From the NCBI RefSeq assembly GCF_053078305.1, contig NZ_CP166876.1: a stretch of 6,795 bases of DNA; one strand, written 5' to 3'. The translations under genes were made by a program, and so were the position numbers. Shown in pieces: positions 1-6,795 of this stretch. The stretch's first letter is position 1; every line of letters starts with the position of its first letter. Below the pieces are notes generated by a model that worked only from the letters and a program-made list of their open reading frames with translations, was not told where the DNA came from and did no database searches. This DNA comes from a plasmid.

Positions 1-915
1 ATGAGCGCCGCGCTTCAATACTTCGAAGAAAATTTACCTCATCGTCCCTATCACACGGATGATCTCGCTTTCGGCCTTCGCATCTCCGGCAAAGGGCGCG
101 CTCTTCTTGCGCGCTACATCCAGCAGAACCAGCCACATGCGCAGTTCTGGCTGGTTTTTGACATTGACCGCGAGGGGGCTGCGATTGACTGGAGCGACCG
201 GAACGCTCCCGCGCCGAACATCACCGTAAAAAATCCTGTGAACGGTCATGCTCACCTGCTCTACGCGCTCAATATCGCCGTGAGAACCGCGCCGGACAGC
301 TCGGTTAAGGCGCTGAAATACGCCGCTGCGATTGAACGTTCGCTGTGTGAGAAACTTTGTGCTGATGTGAACTACAGCGGACTGATTTGCAAAAACCCGT
401 TCCACCTGGAATGGCAGGTGATGGAGTGGCGAGAGGAAGCCTATACCCTCGATGAACTGGCTGATTATCTCGATTTGAGTGCCTCAGCGCGCCGTAGCAT
501 CGATAAACATTACGGGATGGGGCGAAACTGCCACCTGTTCGAAATGACGCGCAAATGGGCTTACAGGGCGATTCGTCAGGGCTGGCCAGCATTCTCACAG
601 TGGCTTGATGCTGTGATTCAGCGTGTCGAAATGTACAACGCATCGCTTCCCGTTCCGCTTTCTCAGGCTGAATGTCGGGCTATTGGCAAGAGTATTGCGA
701 AATACACGCACAGGAACTTCACGCCGGAAACTTTCGCACAGTATGTGGCTGATACGCACACGCCAGAAATTCAGGCTACACGCGGTCGCAAGGGCGGTTC
801 TAAGTCTAAGCGCGGCACAGTAGCTACATCAGCACGCACGCTGAAACCTTGGGAGAAATTAGGGATCAGTCGCGCCTGGTATTACCAACTGAAAAAACGA
901 GGTCTCGTAGAGTAG
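1..915 (+). CDS. rep: ColE2-type plasmid replication initiator Rep (plasmid-specific primase)
   Basis: 304-aa ORF starting at window position 1. The N-terminus (MSAALQYFEENLPHRPY...QQNQPHAQFWLVFDIDREGAA...NITVKNPVNGHAHLLYAL) matches what I remember of ColE2/ColE3 Rep proteins, and its size is typical of them. A ColE2-like origin lies directly 3' of the stop codon, as in that family. Confidence 0.88.
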   Translation: MSAALQYFEENLPHRPYHTDDLAFGLRISGKGRALLARYIQQNQPHAQFWLVFDIDREGAAIDWSDRNAPAPNITVKNPVNGHAHLLYALNIAVRTAPDSSVKALKYAAAIERSLCEKLCADVNYSGLICKNPFHLEWQVMEWREEAYTLDELADYLDLSASARRSIDKHYGMGRNCHLFEMTRKWAYRAIRQGWPAFSQWLDAVIQRVEMYNASLPVPLSQAECRAIGKSIAKYTHRNFTPETFAQYVADTHTPEIQATRGRKGGSKSKRGTVATSARTLKPWEKLGISRAWYYQLKKRGLVE

Positions 916-965
916 ACCAAATAAGCCTATATCAGATAACAGCGCCTTTTTGGCGTCTTTTTGAG
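916..965 (+). other. ColE2-type replication origin (Rep binding and primer synthesis site)
   Basis: The sequence 'accaaataagcctatatcagataacagcgcctttttggcgtctttttgag' begins right after the rep stop codon. It closely resembles the ColE2/ColE3 minimal origin as I recall it (AGATAAGCC..TATCAGATAACAGCGCC), and the position immediately downstream of rep is the family arrangement. Exact boundaries are approximate. Confidence 0.6.
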
Positions 966-1038
966 CAGCTTGGTTTGTTGCTATTTCCCTCGTTGAATCC
1001 CGCAATGGCGCGGCTTTCCGCATGATTGAGGTGGTAGC

Positions 1039-1095
1039 GCTCGCCGCAGTCTCATGACCGAGCGTAGCGAGCGAATGAGCGAGGAAGCGCAAAGG
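1039..1095 (+). other. Putative single-strand initiation / primosome assembly site (ColE1/pMB1-like segment)
   Basis: The segment 'gctcgccgcagtctcatgaccgagcgtagcgagcgaatgagcgaggaagcgcaaagg' is about 75% identical, by eye, to the pMB1/pBR322 segment GCTCGCCGCAGCCGAACGACCGAGCGCAGCGAGTCAGTGAGCGAGGAAGCGGAAGAGCG. In ColE1-type plasmids that segment lies just downstream of ori in the region of the primosome assembly sites. Here it is in the same orientation and about 100 bp downstream of the ColE2-type ori. Function is inferred, not demonstrated. Confidence 0.4.
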
Positions 1096-1139
1096 TGTCG
1101 GTGGTGCATGTGGCACTTACGCGCCGGGGTTTCTCCGTT

Positions 1140-1406
1140 CTACGGTTTCGCAGGTGGTTTGGGTAGCTTCTCCAGCTCGTTAATCAGCGGTTGTATCCGG
1201 TTCACATCGGCCTGTCTTGTGACTTCCTTTCGCAGGAACTGGAGCAGGAACGCACGCAGTTGCGCCTCTTCCGGCCTCCGTACCCTCGCCAGCATGGCAG
1301 CCCCCACAATGACTTTTTGCGCCGTGTCCAGGCTCCGGCTCTTCGCCTTCAGGCGCTGTAATCTGGCCTCAGCTTCGGCAATCTTCTGTTCGAGTGTTCT
1401 GCTCAT
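1140..1406 (-). CDS. Mobilisation accessory protein, MobC-like
   Basis: 88-aa minus-strand ORF (MSRTLEQKIAEAEARLQRLKAKSRSL..KVIVGAAMLARV..) with a GGAG ribosome-binding site about 8 nt upstream of the ATG. It is divergent from the relaxase gene with the candidate oriT between them, which is the RSF1010 mobC-oriT-mobA arrangement. The basic, coiled N-terminus and the KV(I/L)VGA motif resemble RSF1010 MobC as I recall it. Confidence 0.65.
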   Translation of the reverse strand: MSRTLEQKIAEAEARLQRLKAKSRSLDTAQKVIVGAAMLARVRRPEEAQLRAFLLQFLRKEVTRQADVNRIQPLINELEKLPKPPAKP

Positions 1407-1489
1407 TTTGTGACTCCGTGCGCGGTGAAAAATCGCATTTTAGCGCGTCACTGGTAGTTGCAAAACCGAACTGGCATAATGCACGGCAC

Positions 1490-1545
1490 ATCACGAAGTG
1501 CGCACTTATACAATCTCCACTTCGTTTCGATTGTGTGCGCCCTGC
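1490..1545 (+). other. Candidate origin of transfer (oriT) with MOBQ-type nick region
   Basis: It lies in the intergenic region between the divergent mobC-like and mobA genes. It contains a perfect 12-bp palindrome 'aagtgcgcactt' (1496-1507), an inverted repeat 'acgaagtg' (1493-1500) / 'cacttcg' (1518-1524), and 'gtgcgccct' (1535-1543), which matches the RSF1010/R1162 nick region (TAAGTGCG/CCCT). The inferred nick is between 1539 and 1540. Confidence 0.5.
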
Positions 1546-1584
1546 GGGGCTGAAAGAAAACGGCAAAAAGGCATTACGGCAGAA

Positions 1585-3804
1585 ATGGCGATTTATCATC
1601 TCAGCATGAAAATCATTTCGCGAAAAAACGGCTACAGTGCCGTTGCTTCTGCTGCCTACCGTTCCGGCTCTGTCATACCCGATGACCGTACCGGATTAAC
1701 CCACGATTACACCCGTAAACGCGGCGTTGATGATGCGGTCATTCTCACCCCTGCGAATGCACCGTCCTGGTGTGGTGACCGTTCCGTTCTCTGGAATGCG
1801 GTCGAGAAAGCCGAACAGCGCCGGAACTCCCAGCTGGCAAGGGAGATTGAACTCGCCATTCCCCGTGAGATTTCCCGCGAGGCCGCACGGGAGACCGTTC
1901 TCGCTTTTGTCCGGGAAAACTTTGTCAGTCGGGGCATGATTGCCGATGTGGCGTTCCATCACATGGACCGGACCAATCCCCATGCGCACATCATGCTGAC
2001 CACGAGAGCTGTCGGGGAAACGGGATTCGCAGGAAAGGTCAGGGACTGGAACGACCGGGCACTCGCCGAGACGTGGCGCGCATCATGGGCTGACCATGCG
2101 AATAGAGCGCTTGCGAACGCCGGCTACCAGGAAGAGATAGACCATCGTTCATACGAGCGTCAGGGACTGGAGAAAGCGCCGGGCCTTCACCTCGGAAAGG
2201 CTGCCTGTGCGATGGAAAAACGGGGAATGGAAACAGAACGCGGTGAGCAGAACCGTCTGATTAACAGCCTTAACCTGGAAATACAGGTTTCCCGCACGCA
2301 GCTTGCTCTCAGGACGGTTCAGGAAGCGCAGCGTAAGCGGGAACTCAGCGATGCTGCACGTCGTGCAGCGGAAGCCCTTAACCTGACCATTCCCGCTGCG
2401 AATGCCTCAGCGGATACCCTGCGGGAATTCATTGCCACGCTGCCGCAGGAATGCGGGAACGCGTGGGAGATGACCCCGGAGTTCCTGGCGATGAGCGGGA
2501 AGGTGAACGACATCGAACGTGAGGGGAATGCGCTGCTGAAAGAGCAGGCCATTCTCGAAAAGGAGATGACCGGACTCAAAAAAGCACGCCCTGTCGCGTC
2601 CCTTCTGTCAGAGATTCCCCTGATGACATGGGCTGAACCGGAATACCGCAAAAGACAACTCCGTTTCTGGAAACTCGGGAAACAGATTGAATCTCTTCGC
2701 CGCACCTACAGGGCCGTGAAAGAACGGGACATTCCCGCCCGTCGTCAGGCCTTTGAAACGCAGTGGAATACGTGGATTGCGCCGGGAATGGCAGAGCTGA
2801 AAGAAAAACTGTCAGCACGGGAAGCGGAGCGGCGCAGGGAGGAAGCCGAAGCGGAAGCGCGCCGGAAGGAACAGGAGCATGAGGCGCGGCTGAAACGTCA
2901 TGATAACCACCGTCTGAGCCGTGAAACGGCATTAGTCGGGGTTATTACGGAGCTGGGGCGTGCCAGAGAGCCGGGAACGGGCAGGATAACCCGCTACATG
3001 ATGCTGAGTAACAGGGCCGGAGAATTCACGGTATGGGGTGATGAGCTGGCGCATTACCCCCGGAGTGTTCATGACCCGGTGAATGTTTATCTGTCGCCTG
3101 GCGGGGCTGTGATGGTCACGGATATACACGCAGGGCGGCCTGAATCTCATGAGACAATGGCGCGGCCTGAGCGTGTGAGAATGTATTCCGGTGCGACGGT
3201 CCGGCATGTACTGGAACAGATGCGCCAGGGGTGGCCCTCTTACGGTTTTCCGGCGCTGCCGCATCACTGGCCGGATAATTTTTATTTCAGCAACGACCGC
3301 AGGCCCGTAGCCTCTCCGCTACCGTCAGCGCACCGGGTGGATATCACCGCTGATGCGGCACCGGAACAACTCATGCCTGTTGTATTTTCGAGAGAGGGAA
3401 ACAGCAGGACGCTGAATCTGTTGTTGTGCAAAGGGCCGGAGGAAATGCTTGTCGGGTTTGTTCGCCGGGAAGGAGGGTTTTGCCCCGTTCTTGTGCTTCC
3501 GTCGCCGGATTACAGTCATCTGATGGTCAGCACCATCACGGAGAACGGGGTATGCCTGGCAGGTTACGGAGAAGCTATAAACCATGATGAGGATACTCCG
3601 TACCCACCGGAACCGCACCTGATGCAGTTCCGGCTCAAAGGCCATCATGACAGGCTTTTGGCTGCTGTCCACAAACCGGAAGAGATGCCGGATTATCTCT
3701 TCCGTCAACTCGGTTTTAATCAGACCTGGCATGAGTGGAAGCGGGACGAACAGCACAGGCAACAACAACGCCGCCCCGGGCACTTCCGGGGCATGAGTAT
3801 GTGA
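1585..3804 (+). CDS. mobA: Mobilisation relaxase, MobA/MobL family (MOBQ-like), with long C-terminal extension
   Basis: The N-terminus MAIYHLSMKIISRKNGYSAVASAAYRSG is the conserved MobA/MobL start, with a tyrosine at residue 25 (codon 1657-1659), the same position as the catalytic Tyr25 of RSF1010 MobA. A histidine-triad motif HHMDRTNPHAHIM sits around 1957-1995. The start is set at the in-frame ATG at 1585; the six-frame ORF begins at 1498 but that upstream stretch overlaps the oriT and lacks the family N-terminus. About 440 residues follow the relaxase domain. Confidence 0.88.
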   Translation: MAIYHLSMKIISRKNGYSAVASAAYRSGSVIPDDRTGLTHDYTRKRGVDDAVILTPANAPSWCGDRSVLWNAVEKAEQRRNSQLAREIELAIPREISREAARETVLAFVRENFVSRGMIADVAFHHMDRTNPHAHIMLTTRAVGETGFAGKVRDWNDRALAETWRASWADHANRALANAGYQEEIDHRSYERQGLEKAPGLHLGKAACAMEKRGMETERGEQNRLINSLNLEIQVSRTQLALRTVQEAQRKRELSDAARRAAEALNLTIPAANASADTLREFIATLPQECGNAWEMTPEFLAMSGKVNDIEREGNALLKEQAILEKEMTGLKKARPVASLLSEIPLMTWAEPEYRKRQLRFWKLGKQIESLRRTYRAVKERDIPARRQAFETQWNTWIAPGMAELKEKLSAREAERRREEAEAEARRKEQEHEARLKRHDNHRLSRETALVGVITELGRAREPGTGRITRYMMLSNRAGEFTVWGDELAHYPRSVHDPVNVYLSPGGAVMVTDIHAGRPESHETMARPERVRMYSGATVRHVLEQMRQGWPSYGFPALPHHWPDNFYFSNDRRPVASPLPSAHRVDITADAAPEQLMPVVFSREGNSRTLNLLLCKGPEEMLVGFVRREGGFCPVLVLPSPDYSHLMVSTITENGVCLAGYGEAINHDEDTPYPPEPHLMQFRLKGHHDRLLAAVHKPEEMPDYLFRQLGFNQTWHEWKRDEQHRQQQRRPGHFRGMSM

Positions 3805-3842
3805 TATCCGGGGCTGCACCTCGGACCCCGCCAACACATCAC

Positions 3843-3866
3843 GGGCCACAAAATTTTTTGTGGCCC
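3843..3866. terminator. GC-rich hairpin downstream of mobA (possible terminator)
   Basis: Palindrome 'gggccac aaaatttttt gtggccc' has a 7-bp GC-rich stem with an A/T loop, located 39 bp after the mobA stop. There is no clean T-run after the stem, so terminator function is uncertain. Confidence 0.35.
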
Positions 3867-3923
3867 GCTCTGCGTTTTCTAAGTGTTATCCCTCCTGATT
3901 TCTAAAAAATTTTCCACCTGAAC

Positions 3924-3952
3924 TTGACAGAAAAAACGATGACGGGTACTTT
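3924..3952 (+). promoter_or_regulatory. Putative colicin promoter (-35 TTGACA; -10 region uncertain)
   Basis: A perfect -35 hexamer 'ttgaca' at 3924-3929 lies upstream of the LexA boxes and about 110 bp upstream of the colicin ATG. The best -10 candidate about 17 bp downstream ('tacttt', 3947-3952) is weak, so exact promoter elements are uncertain. Confidence 0.5.
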
Positions 3953-3957
3953 TTGAT

Positions 3958-3988
3958 CTGTACATAAAACCAGTGGTTTTATGTACAG
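3958..3988 (+). promoter_or_regulatory. Overlapping dual LexA (SOS) boxes of a colicin operon
   Basis: The sequence 'ctgtacataaaaccagtggttttatgtacag' contains a first box CTGTACATAAAACCAG (3958-3973) and a second box overlapping its last base and ending in ACAG at 3988. This is the characteristic tandem overlapping SOS operator found upstream of colicin genes (CTGT-N8-ACAG type). Confidence 0.9.
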
Positions 3989-4036
3989 TATTAATCATGT
4001 AATTAATTGTTTTAACGCTTAAAAGAGGGAATTTTT

Positions 4037-5707
4037 ATGAGCGGTGGCGATGGACGCGGCCATAACACGGGCGCGCATAGCACAAGTGGTAACATTAATG
4101 GTGGCCCGACCGGGCTTGGTGTAGGTGGTGGTGCTTCTGATGGCTCCGGATGGAGTTCGGAAAATAACCCGTGGGGTGGTGGTTCCGGTAGCGGCATTCA
4201 CTGGGGTGGTGGTTCCGGTCATGGTAATGGCGGGGGGAATGGTAATTCCGGTGGTGGTTCGGGAACAGGCGGTAATCTGTCAGCAGTAGCTGCGCCAGTG
4301 GCATTTGGTTTTCCGGCACTTTCCACTCCAGGAGCTGGCGGTCTGGCGGTCAGTATTTCAGCGGGAGCATTATCGGCAGCTATTGCTGATATTATGGCTG
4401 CCCTGAAAGGACCGTTTAAATTTGGTCTTTGGGGGGTGGCTTTATATGGTGTATTGCCATCACAAATAGCGAAAGATGACCCCAATATGATGTCAAAGAT
4501 TGTGACGTCATTACCCGCAGATGATATTACTGAATCACCTGTCAGTTCATTACCTCTCGATAAGGCAACAGTAAACGTAAATGTTCGTGTTGTTGATGAT
4601 GTAAAAGACGAACGACAGAATATTTCGGTTGTTTCAGGTGTTCCGATGAGTGTTCCGGTGGTTGATGCAAAACCTACCGAACGTCCAGGTGTTTTTACGG
4701 CATCAATTCCAGGTGCACCTGTTCTGAATATTTCAGTTAATAACAGTACGCCAGCAGTACAGACATTAAGCCCAGGTGTTACAAATAATACTGATAAGGA
4801 TGTTCGCCCGGCAGGATTTACTCAGGGGGGTAATACCAGGGATGCAGTTATTCGATTCCCGAAGGACAGCGGTCATAATGCCGTATATGTTTCAGTGAGT
4901 GATGTTCTTAGCCCTGACCAGGTAAAACAACGTCAGGATGAAGAAAATCGCCGTCAGCAGGAATGGGATGCTACGCATCCGGTTGAAGCGGCTGAGCGAA
5001 ATTATGAACGCGCGCGTGCAGAGCTGAATCAGGCAAATGAAGATGTTGCCAGAAATCAGGAGCGACAGGCTAAAGCTGTTCAGGTTTATAATTCGCGTAA
5101 AAGCGAACTTGATGCAGCGAATAAAACTCTTGCTGATGCAATAGCTGAAATAAAACAATTTGAACGATTTGCACATGACCCAATGGCTGGCGGTCACAGA
5201 ATGTGGCAAATGGCCGGGCTTAAAGCTCAGCGGGCGCAGACGGATGTAAATAATAAGCAGGCTGCATTTGATGCTGCTGCAAAAGAGAAGGCAGATGCTG
5301 ATGCTGCATTAAGTACTGCGATGGAAAGCAGGAAGAAGAAAGAGGATAATAAAAGAGATGCTGAAGGCAAACTAAATGATGAGTTAGCAAAAAATAAAGG
5401 AAAGATACCAGGTCTAAAAATAGATCAGAAAATTAGGGGACAAATGCCAGAAAGAGGATGGACAGAGGATGATATCAAAAATACCGTATCTAACGGTGCA
5501 ACTGGTACATCTTTTGATAAGCGTAGTCCGAAGAAAACACCTCCAGACTATTTAGGTCGAAATGATCCAGCAACAGTGTATGGTTCTCCTGGTAAATATG
5601 TTGTTGTCAATGATCGTACTGGTGAGGTTACTCAGATTAGTGATAAGACAGATCCGGGTTGGGTGGACGATTCGAGAATTCAATGGGGAAATAAAAATGA
5701 CCAATAA
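4037..5707 (+). CDS. cea: E-group colicin (BtuB/Tol-dependent); C-terminal cytotoxic domain most consistent with E5-type anticodon tRNase
   Basis: 556-aa ORF with an AGAGGG ribosome-binding site upstream. The glycine-rich N-terminal translocation domain carries the TolB box DGSGW at residues 35-39 (nt 4139-4153), as in colicins E2/E3/E9. The central region is the long coiled-coil receptor-binding domain typical of E colicins. The C-terminal ~105 residues (KIPGLKIDQKIRGQMPERGW...WGNKNDQ) have no HNH motif and no histidine, which argues against the E2/E7/E8/E9 DNases; I do not recognise it as the E3 rRNase either, and it fits my recollection of the histidine-free E5 tRNase domain. It is preceded by the SOS operator and followed by immunity and lysis genes. 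Confidence 0.93.
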   Translation: MSGGDGRGHNTGAHSTSGNINGGPTGLGVGGGASDGSGWSSENNPWGGGSGSGIHWGGGSGHGNGGGNGNSGGGSGTGGNLSAVAAPVAFGFPALSTPGAGGLAVSISAGALSAAIADIMAALKGPFKFGLWGVALYGVLPSQIAKDDPNMMSKIVTSLPADDITESPVSSLPLDKATVNVNVRVVDDVKDERQNISVVSGVPMSVPVVDAKPTERPGVFTASIPGAPVLNISVNNSTPAVQTLSPGVTNNTDKDVRPAGFTQGGNTRDAVIRFPKDSGHNAVYVSVSDVLSPDQVKQRQDEENRRQQEWDATHPVEAAERNYERARAELNQANEDVARNQERQAKAVQVYNSRKSELDAANKTLADAIAEIKQFERFAHDPMAGGHRMWQMAGLKAQRAQTDVNNKQAAFDAAAKEKADADAALSTAMESRKKKEDNKRDAEGKLNDELAKNKGKIPGLKIDQKIRGQMPERGWTEDDIKNTVSNGATGTSFDKRSPKKTPPDYLGRNDPATVYGSPGKYVVVNDRTGEVTQISDKTDPGWVDDSRIQWGNKNDQ

Positions 5708-6026
5708 ATTATTTGAACATACGGTGTTATATGATAGTGGTGATGCCTTTTTTGAATTAAAAGGAAATGCTTCTATGAAGTTATCACCAAAAGCTGCAAT
5801 AGAAGTTTGTAATGAAGCAGCGAAAAAAGGCTTATGGATTTTGGGCATTGATGGTGGGCATTGGCTGAATCCTGGATTCAGGATAGATAGTTCAGCATCA
5901 TGGACATATGATATGCCGGAGGAATACAAATCAAAAATCCCTGAAAATAATAGATTGGCTATTGAAAATATTAAAGATGATATTGAGAATGGATACACTG
6001 CTTTCATTATCACGTTAAAGATGTAA
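5697..6026 (+). CDS. Colicin immunity protein (cognate inhibitor of the C-terminal nuclease domain)
   Basis: 109-aa ORF (MTNKLFEHTVLYDSGDAFFELKGN...) whose ATG at 5697 overlaps the colicin stop codon (5705-5707), the typical translationally coupled position of nuclease-colicin immunity genes. The six-frame ORF begins at 5562, but that extension lies wholly inside the colicin reading frame and is rejected. The gene is AT-rich like the cytotoxic domain. Confidence 0.85.
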   Translation: MTNKLFEHTVLYDSGDAFFELKGNASMKLSPKAAIEVCNEAAKKGLWILGIDGGHWLNPGFRIDSSASWTYDMPEEYKSKIPENNRLAIENIKDDIENGYTAFIITLKM

Positions 6027-6123
6027 ATAGTGTTATAGAATTTTATGTTTCATGGATGATTTCAACCTTTGGATTTCAGGTTTTTATGGATGAATGCCTG
6101 AGTCCATATATACAAGGAACAGT

Positions 6124-6267
6124 ATGAAAAAAATAACATGGATTATTTTATTGCTTCTTGCAGCCATTATTCTTGCTGCATGTCAGGCAAACTATATCCG
6201 CGATGTTCAGGGCGGGACTGTATCCCCGTCATCCTCAGCTGAACTGACCGGATTAGCAACGCAGTAA
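6124..6267 (+). CDS. Colicin lysis / release lipoprotein (bacteriocin release protein)
   Basis: Translation by hand gives the 47-aa protein [47 protein letters not shown], with a lipoprotein signal peptide and lipobox LAAC. It is nearly identical to the E-group colicin lysis proteins as I recall them. It is absent from the ORF track because it is short. A ribosome-binding site 'aaggaa' lies upstream. Confidence 0.9.
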
Positions 6268-6294
6268 CCCGAAATCCTCTTTGACAAGAACAAA

Positions 6295-6327
6295 GCGTGT
6301 CAGGCTGATTCTGACGCGCTTTTTTTT
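6295..6327 (+). terminator. Rho-independent terminator of the colicin operon
   Basis: A 9-bp stem 'gcgtgtcag' (6295-6303) pairs with 'ctgacgcgc' (6311-6319), with one G-U pair and a 7-nt loop, and is followed by a run of 8 T (6320-6327). It lies 28 bp after the lysis gene stop. Confidence 0.8.
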
Positions 6328-6463
6328 GAAGTGTCACAAAAATTCCATGTGGGAGATGGGATCTAAAATCCCCGTGCAGAACTTTCCATCCAGGGGGAGA
6401 AAACTTGTCGTTTTGAGCCGTTCGGTGTTCAGAACGCACGAAACCGATCGTGCATCGCTTTCG

Positions 6464-6477
6464 TGCATAGTTATGCA
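6464..6477. promoter_or_regulatory. ARG-box-like palindrome (candidate ArgR accessory site of the cer-like locus)
   Basis: Palindrome 'tgcatagttatgca' resembles the ARG box half-sites (TGAAT/ATTCA with a symmetric A-to-C change) and is centred about 120 bp upstream of the XerCD core, close to the spacing in ColE1 cer. A direct repeat 'tcgtgcat' (6448-6455 and 6461-6468) flanks it. Confidence 0.35.
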
Positions 6478-6578
6478 ACGCGCTAAAAACGATTCTGACG
6501 CATTTTTTATGTTTACCCTGGTGTTTCCTTGTCTTTTTGTTTTTTTTGCGTCAGAAAGCGATTGAGGGTGTTTTAAGG

Positions 6579-6606
6579 GGTGCGTACAACGGGAGTTATG
6601 GTAAAT
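6579..6606 (+). other. XerC/XerD site-specific recombination core (cer-like multimer resolution site)
   Basis: The sequence 'ggtgcgtacaa cgggag ttatggtaaat' has a XerC arm identical to ColE1 cer (GGTGCGTACAA), a 6-bp central region (cer has 8 bp) and a XerD arm TTATGGTAAAT identical to cer. About 180 bp of upstream accessory sequence (about 6400-6578) includes the ARG-box-like palindrome. Confidence 0.8.
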
Positions 6607-6619
6607 GGATCGGGTTTTG

Positions 6620-6795
6620 GGGAATAATCGACAGGGTTTGCCGTTGGGTGTAGTGTAAGCGACTGAAAAACAAACGCCCCGTAAATCGTGCTCTCACCGC
6701 CAAGATTGATCACGAAATTACAGGGCGCCGGGTTCCGCGTCTCCCGATGGGAAAGCGCGGTTAGTTAAACTGTGTACCGAGAGGAATCGTAACAC
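6620..6795 (+). promoter_or_regulatory. Presumed rep leader / copy-number control region (rep promoter, antisense-RNA target), continuing into rep at position 1 if the molecule is circular
   Basis: A ribosome-binding site 'gagagg' (6778-6783) sits about 12 nt before the window end, positioned for the rep ATG at 1 across the circular junction. An imperfect stem-loop 'ccgcgtctccc gat gggaaagcgcgg' is at about 6757-6780. A candidate sigma70 promoter has -35 'tcgaca' (6628-6633) and -10 'tagtgt' (6651-6656). ColE2-type replicons control Rep translation with an antisense RNA against this leader; the exact RNA ends cannot be set from sequence. Confidence 0.35.

Follow-up and report, generated by a model that had tools for sequence, protein, structure and literature searches.

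A MOBQ4 relaxase with a long C-terminal extension

We analysed the mobilisation gene mobA on a plasmid sequence of 6,795 bp (contig NZ_CP166876.1 of RefSeq assembly GCF_053078305.1; hereafter the window), whose product combines an N-terminal relaxase domain with a large C-terminal extension ending in a module homologous to the C-terminus of the Sog primases of IncI plasmids. As a whole, the window represents one small circular plasmid that aligns end to end, in a rotated register, with pO111-110512_4 of Escherichia coli O111 at 99.2% identity, and at least parts of it occur in ~1800 PLSDB records. Annotated on pO111-110512_4 are a Rep of the ColE2 type, a tRNase-domain colicin, genes for immunity and lysis, a short divergent open reading frame (ORF) and a 739-aa 'MobQ family relaxase'. 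In the window, mobA occupies positions 1585–3804 on the plus strand (ATG at 1585, stop at 3804; 739 codons plus stop), and RefSeq gives the same length on the near-identical plasmid. The gene is separated by a predicted origin of transfer (oriT) region (1407–1584) from the divergent mobC (1140–1406, minus strand), which encodes an 88-aa relaxase accessory protein named MobC in pSE11-6. This gap measures exactly 178 bp, the size of the experimentally defined MOBQ4 oriT fragment (PMC6856555).

The MOBQ4 relaxases were defined by Garcillán-Barcia et al. in 2019, with ColE2-like colicin plasmids, including ColE9-J, pO111_4 and pDPT1, forming the subgroup MOBQ42 (PMC6856555). The plasmids of this subgroup share with the window the ColE2-type Rep, the colicin operon, the divergent mobC, the 178-bp oriT and a 739-aa MobA with Y25 and the histidine triad (PMC6856555). 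The plasmid studied here is a member of this published family and subgroup: it has the divergent small mobC with the ~178-bp gap to mobA, and the ColE2-type replicon and nuclease-colicin operon that mark MOBQ42 are inferred through the annotation of the 99.2% identical pO111-110512_4. The MobA tail is likewise already known as a MOBQ4 family trait, since the defining paper noted both the Sog homology and the helper preference. That homology was mentioned there in a single sentence, as a low level of homology between SogL primases and the C-terminal part, and the paper gives this part no boundaries, structure, distribution or function (PMC6856555). To this we add precise boundaries, a confident model of two subdomains without a solved relative, the association with I-type transfer operons, and evidence for repeated, lineage-matched exchange of modules.

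The relaxase domain was assigned to residues 1–213 (1585–2223; all MobA features lie on the plus strand). Pfam MobA_MobL, the sole Pfam match in the protein, covers residues 18–213 (E 4e-69). In a search of PDB sequences, NES (4ht4, E 1.5e-29) and RSF1010 MobA (2ns6) matched residues 2–190 only; the NCBIfam MobQ model spans residues 1–193 (262 bits against a cutoff of 200), and TraA-type models reach residue 251. Consistently, the AlphaFold2 (AF2) model shows a relaxase core at residues 1–178, with a predicted local distance difference test score (pLDDT) of 75–90. Y25, E87/E89 and H125/H133/H135 are present and invariant across eight aligned family members, and their presence together with the MobA_MobL match identifies MobA as a MOBQ relaxase. 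The initial annotation, made from the sequence alone, had correctly named Tyr25 and the histidine triad. It had let the fold run to residue 250–300 and counted an extension of ~440 residues; by Pfam, PDB and AF2 the fold ends near residues 180–213, which makes the extension about 525 residues long. The best solved relative of the relaxase domain, the NES relaxase of pLW1043 (4HT4), also has a large non-relaxase C-terminal part, but no sequence similarity to MobA was found beyond residue 190.

The long extension claimed by the initial annotation proved to be real. Five homologues carry the region intact and colinear. MobA is 53% identical and colinear over its full length with MobQ of pSE11-6, and the protein is likewise intact and colinear end to end in a 739-aa copy carried by another replicon and in three homologues of 715–719 aa on 4-kb plasmids. 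Compared with the closest divergent copy (Nei-Gojobori), the ratio of nonsynonymous to synonymous substitution rates (dN/dS) is 0.27 overall and 0.15–0.29 in each of the segments, the charged helix and the two C-terminal subdomains described below among them, a sign of purifying selection. Relative to the 739-aa copy on p6_020022, mobA is a mosaic: the synonymous rate is 0.027 for codons 1–213 and 0.17–0.25 for codons 214–739, with a breakpoint near position 2223. This jump at the junction of relaxase and extension therefore points to recombination there. The junction segment itself (residues 214–255; 2224–2349) is conserved in sequence, with many invariant residues within 214–237 in the eight-sequence alignment, and of low confidence in structure (AF2 pLDDT <50 for residues 188–249).

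The C-terminal module of MobA is homologous to the end of Sog

The last ~290 residues of MobA, most of which the initial annotation had described as a ~270-residue region that could not be assigned to any family, are clearly assignable by sequence homology to the C-terminal end of the IncI primase Sog. BLASTP aligned MobA residues 449–733 (2929–3783) with residues 946–1246 of the 1255-residue SogL at 34% identity (E 3e-47), and no other region of the two proteins aligned. Supporting this, a tblastn search of plasmids with residues 439–739 returned ~2400 large plasmids, mostly of IncI type, at 33–36% identity, 95% query coverage and E ~1e-45; the matched genes are annotated as sogL, as DNA primase or as LPD7/DUF5710-domain protein. 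In an exhaustive HMMER scan of 1.84 billion representatives, only 57 clusters matched the module. In every full-length protein examined, it forms the C-terminus either of a primase-like protein of 1000–1650 aa or of a MobQ relaxase of 615–824 aa, preceded by an ER-rich helix in the relaxases and by a Pro/Ala/Thr-rich linker in the primases.

SogL carries DUF5710 (residues 8–59), Toprim (266–365) and LPD7 (776–861), and the region shared with MobA is its unannotated extreme C-terminus. Because this region lies downstream of both Toprim and LPD7, it is not a primase domain, and the homologous end of Sog is, judged by this layout, non-catalytic. SogS is an in-frame restart product of sog of 844 aa (PMC6112013); the shared region is present in both SogL and SogS. 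An analogous internal in-frame restart in mobA is not supported, as only 4-nt Shine-Dalgarno-like matches were found. SogL and SogS of the IncI1 plasmids ColIb-P9 and R64 resemble MobA in bearing the module at the very C-terminal end, and Sog and MobA alike pass into the recipient cell. Of the features of Sog-type primases, MobA shares the C-terminal module and has neither the Toprim domain with its EGYATA motif nor LPD7; it also lacks DUF5710 and the long low-complexity linkers. In place of these parts, a relaxase and a helical domain are present. One finding that the initial annotation had named as speaking against its view of the tail, clear homology to a known primase, thus holds in part: MobA is homologous to Sog, but only to its non-catalytic end.

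Predicted structure of the module

No family model or solved structure resembling the module was identified by sequence: residues 214–438 and 439–739 gave no NCBIfam or PHROG match, searches with Pfam and PDB sequences were blank beyond the relaxase, and for 23 aligned modules Pfam again gave no match and a profile search of PDB sequences was empty. AF2 modelled the module with confidence (mean pLDDT 85.6) as two subdomains separated by a disordered loop. Subdomain 1 (residues 450–513; 2932–3123) is predicted to be a small five-strand barrel resembling an oligonucleotide/oligosaccharide-binding (OB) fold, and subdomain 2 (residues 530–729; 3172–3771) a β-rich domain with flanking helices. Residues 730–739 (3772–3801) form an unstructured basic tail (AF2 pLDDT 43–60, net charge +2). 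The net charge is −1 for subdomain 1 and −3 for subdomain 2, and the 10 invariant residues of the 23-sequence alignment all lie within subdomain 2. A comparison of the two subdomains with hhalign did not detect an internal duplication (probability 0.2%).

A Foldseek search of the PDB with the module gave nothing below E 0.001, and its weak matches were the tandem-OB DNA binders HIN-200, POT1 and LEF-3. Against AFDB50, Foldseek returned family members only, including Sog and TraC-type primases at E 1e-27. The structural similarity of subdomain 1 to OB-fold proteins that bind single-stranded DNA (ssDNA), such as SSB and PriB, is weak; there is no sequence similarity, and subdomain 1 is slightly acidic.

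The C-terminal tails of the primase members are conserved and end in ...PxPGR or ...RPA, with ...S-P-G-R in the enterobacterial I-complex types and ...(E/D)-x-R-P-A in the Pseudomonas type; these tails may be features of a secretion signal. The MobQ tails are basic and differ from them (...RRPGHFRGMSM).

Distribution of the module and its exchange between primases and relaxases

We sampled nine loci encoding primases with the full module, on IncI-gamma/K1, IncK2/Z, IncL/M, Klebsiella, Citrobacter, Serratia (two), Yersinia and Pseudomonas plasmids. At all nine, the primase gene sits at the same place within a Dot/Icm-like (I-type) transfer operon, whose genes run traJ, traK/icmT, primase, DotI, DotH, traO. 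MOB-suite assigned seven of the nine to the mating-pair formation type MPF_I; the Citrobacter (L011) and IncK2/Z (L017) plasmids received no MPF call yet have the same operon.

Subdomain 1 is distributed differently. It occurs alone in primase-like proteins of the IncC plasmid pIMP-PH114 (MPF_F; L008:3584-5311) and of Piscirickettsia p3PS11 (MPF_T; L010:1499-4546), so subdomain 2 is the part tied to I-type systems. It was also seen in the middle of a protein of a P. putida MPF_I plasmid (L009:3095-5890). The lone subdomain 1 carries the motif G-x-V...G-x-A-P-(F/Y)...W-G-K-E-L, sits in proteins with Toprim or LPD7, and has no Pfam model. From these sequences, the lone OB-like subdomain looks like a separate, wider-spread module of conjugative primase-like proteins.

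Related relaxases bear modules that match different primase lineages, at up to 77% identity. The relaxase domains of the MOBQ41, P0031 and P0020 relaxases are 68–85% identical to that of the window's MobA. The MOBQ41 module, by comparison, is 46% identical to that of SogL and 39% to the MOBQ42 module of the window, and the P0031 or P0020 module is only 24% identical to the latter. Moreover, the P0031 module is 77% identical to the module of an IncK2/Z-type primase. These values indicate that modules have been exchanged between helper primases and relaxases more than once, and the module is, on these identities, polyphyletic among relaxases. P0020 is an 824-aa MobQ protein encoded on a 7.4-kb Rep_3 plasmid contig (L018:838-3312) together with a glycosyl hydrolase and a major facilitator superfamily transporter; its OB-like subdomain is duplicated in tandem before the β-rich subdomain (residues 441–520 and 537–817).

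A family-specific middle domain and a long predicted helix connect relaxase and module

The full-length AF2 model was built from a shallow alignment (mean pLDDT 63), and its arrangement of domains is untrustworthy; because of the shallow alignment, only its local features were used. In this model, the stretch 182–250 is poorly defined. It is followed by a helical middle domain (residues 256–351; 2350–2637) with helices at 256–264, 276–285, 290–294 and 298–333 (pLDDT 76–89). This domain has no family match and appears to be specific to MOBQ4: a tblastn search with residues 251–412 matched 534 plasmid records, 532 typed as mobilizable and two as non-mobilizable, and among the matches listed all were MOBQ4-type MobQ plasmids. 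When the module and the middle region were each used for word-indexed homologue searches, the only relatives returned had at least 70% identity and were mostly fragments.

Residues 352–444 (2638–2916) are predicted to form a single unbroken helix of ~93 residues, with pLDDT ~85 to residue 420 and falling confidence past residue 430. The charged Glu/Arg/Ala stretch EAERRREEAEAEARRKEQEHEARLKRH, which the initial annotation had placed at nucleotides ~2821–2900, was located exactly at residues 413–439 (2821–2901). A charge scan identified it as the most charged 27-residue segment of MobA (67–70% D/E/K/R). It is not a separate element but the C-terminal end of the predicted helix, making up its last third. 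Its charged character is kept in all eight family members, where a conserved (H/N)DN motif comes after it, and it is retained even in the 615-aa P0031, which lacks most of the middle domain. The predicted helix is long, continuous and very rich in E, R and K, as are ER/K single α-helices; we accordingly read the charged stretch as a putative ER/K-type rigid spacer in front of the C-terminal module. The long helix might also pair with helix 298–333.

A possible role of the module in transfer through I-type systems

The helper range of MOBQ4 plasmids has been determined experimentally. The best helpers are R64drd11 (IncI1) and pCTX-M3 (IncL/M), both MPF_I; F, R27, R388 and pKM101 fail, and RP4, R751 and R6K are variable or lower (PMC6856555). 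The MOBQ42 derivative pRC2 is preferentially mobilised by MPF_I systems and has a cis-acting relaxase, MOBQ4 relaxases in general working at least 500-fold better in cis (PMC6856555). As for Sog, its export to the recipient is DNA-independent and amounts to hundreds of copies (PMC8406263, PMC6112013), and it has been suggested to coat the ssDNA that is transferred (PMC6112013). Transposon insertion sequencing of an IncI1 plasmid scored the SogS part at 1.00 as 'required for transfer' and a fraction of 0.26 of SogL as non-essential, the table giving no positions (PMC4288162). We read the 0.26 fraction as the primase-specific N-terminus because the SogS-coding part scores 1.00.

We propose that the module is a helper-matched determinant of docking or of translocation and export through I-type secretion systems, presented at the end of a rigid spacer, and assign this reading a probability of roughly 0.45. 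MobA would then consist of four parts, namely a domain for nicking, a helical domain peculiar to the family, a rigid spacer formed by the long helix and a Sog-derived module. The last would have been taken from the non-catalytic C-terminus of Sog-type primases of I-type plasmids (MPF_I, with a Dot/Icm-like type IVB secretion system), and in Sog it would be the part that enables bulk, DNA-independent export through that system. Through this module the MobA–DNA complex could dock directly on the coupling apparatus of the helper or do so by pairing with that plasmid's Sog. Such docking would explain why I-type helpers mobilise MOBQ4 plasmids best. We infer this putative role from the homology, domain layout, selection, operon association and lineage matching described above, and it is in keeping with the fact that both classes of module-bearing protein, Sog and relaxase, are known conjugative export substrates. 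The broader idea, that the C-terminal ~300 residues of Sog are a portable 'I-type export/docking domain' of which MOBQ4 plasmids captured lineage-matched copies more than once, is put forward tentatively, as somewhat less likely than not. The initial annotation had suggested coupling-protein contact or DNA binding for the tail, and this remains a sensible range of candidate functions.

Several observations weigh against a docking or export role. NikB, the IncI relaxase, has no detectable copy, with one tblastn match per IncI plasmid, and ColE1-type plasmids are mobilised by R64 without the module (PMC6856555); I-type transfer in general can therefore proceed without the module. MOBQ4 plasmids are also mobilised by RP4 and R751 (MPF_T), albeit at lower frequency (PMC6856555). 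Subdomain 1 looks OB-like and is found alongside other secretion types, as would suit DNA binding. Additionally, co-residence of the plasmids alone could explain the exchange of modules, and the operon association comes from nine sampled loci and not from a census.

The module might instead bind ssDNA, so that it coats, protects or helps to process the transferred strand in the recipient, the relaxase copy giving independence from the helper's Sog. The weak Foldseek matches to HIN-200, POT1 and LEF-3 would agree with this, as would the ssDNA-coating proposal for Sog (PMC6112013) and the presence of subdomain 1 alone in MPF_F and MPF_T plasmids, where its role looks independent of secretion type. 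However, the net charges of −1 and −3 are unlike the basic surface expected of such a domain, the invariant residues lie in subdomain 2 and not in the OB-like part, and a generic role leaves the I-type restriction and the lineage matching unexplained. We regard ssDNA binding, or escort of the strand, as the main rival, though a less likely one. It is also conceivable, if improbable, that the module couples MobA to the Sog of the helper or to itself, serving relaxosome assembly or cis-action as an oligomerisation or partner-binding domain and not as a secretion signal. Homologous domains often associate; the at least 500-fold cis preference of MOBQ4 relaxases (PMC6856555) and the position of the module on a rigid spacer, as for an interaction head, are in line with this, and lineage matching is also expected if the module pairs with a specific Sog. 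Yet pairing overlaps with the docking model insofar as pairing with Sog could be the route of docking.

A primase that primes synthesis of the complementary strand, like RepB' of RSF1010 MobA, is suggested by the position of the region and by its nearest relatives, which are annotated 'DNA primase'. Indeed, MobA-RepB' of RSF1010/R1162 (MOBQ1) likewise joins an N-terminal MOBQ relaxase to a large primase-related C-terminal part. Parker and Meyer reportedly found in 2007 that the primase part of R1162 carries a type IV transport signal. The RSF1010 protein's C-terminal portion is, however, a catalytic primase with an overlapping mobB and an IncP helper, in contrast to the non-catalytic module, absent mobB and I-type helper of MobA, which has neither the RepB'-type primase nor the overlapping gene of an RSF1010-type fusion. 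Only residues 946–1246 of SogL align with MobA, which excludes the Toprim domain (266–365). Consistently, no Pfam primase or Toprim domain was found in MobA or in the 23 aligned modules, no EGYATA motif is present, and no PDB primase matched by sequence or fold. A primase function was rejected on these grounds as very improbable, and the view of the initial annotation that the tail differs from that of RSF1010 MobA holds. Finally, the long ORF could be an artefact of frameshift or fusion, or else a gene remnant in decay, as some related records (e.g. H7, H11 and H23) list no mobQ, which may reflect pseudogenes or gaps in gene tables. The same 739-aa ORF is found in independent records, the 715–719-aa homologues are colinear, every segment shows the low dN/dS given above, and the module is modelled with confidence; conservation and selection thus leave an artefact with a negligible chance.

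Clinical E. coli, Shigella and Salmonella very commonly harbour MOBQ4 plasmids, and these carry colicins that shape competition between strains. Which conjugative plasmid can move them depends on how the relaxase contacts the secretion system of that helper, and such contacts are little understood in the case of I-type (Dot/Icm-like) systems. If the module does act in docking or export, helper specificity would become predictable from sequence, and the relaxases would mimic the protein that the helper itself exports most abundantly. The module would then offer a handle on substrate choice by conjugative type IVB systems, as the first folded recruitment domain defined there, and would account for the fact that IncI transfer needs the non-primase part of Sog. 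If it were only a DNA-binding escort, its spread would amount to ordinary domain sharing between co-resident plasmids.

Overlapping reading frames and neighbouring genes

The initial annotation had noted no shifted ORF of 60 aa or more inside mobA. This is correct within 2480–3804, where the largest such ORF has 53 aa (3426–3587), but not for the gene as a whole: a 70-aa ORF with a TTG start lies at 1727–1939 on the plus strand, in the +2 frame, within the relaxase-coding part. It is identical in a close relative and broken by stop codons in three MOBQ41 homologues. Because of these stops it is not a gene but, most likely, an ORF that arose by chance in GC-rich sequence. A mobB-like overlapping gene in mobA was accordingly rejected, as this alternative-frame ORF is not conserved.

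The mobC gene is a 'hypothetical protein' in the matching RefSeq record and a 'relaxase accessory protein MobC' in pSE11-6. Its under-annotation was already reported in the MOBQ4 study, which also tested the role of MobC experimentally (PMC6856555). An Rfam scan of the window (1–6795) gave no family at the gathering score. ColE2-type replicons are known to control rep by an antisense RNA (RNAI), yet there is no Rfam match in the window; either a curated model does not exist or it does not match here. A 109-aa ORF (5697–6026, plus strand) directly follows the colicin gene, overlapping its end by 11 nt. It occupies the position of an immunity gene, and its RefSeq name, 'colicin transporter', looks misleading.

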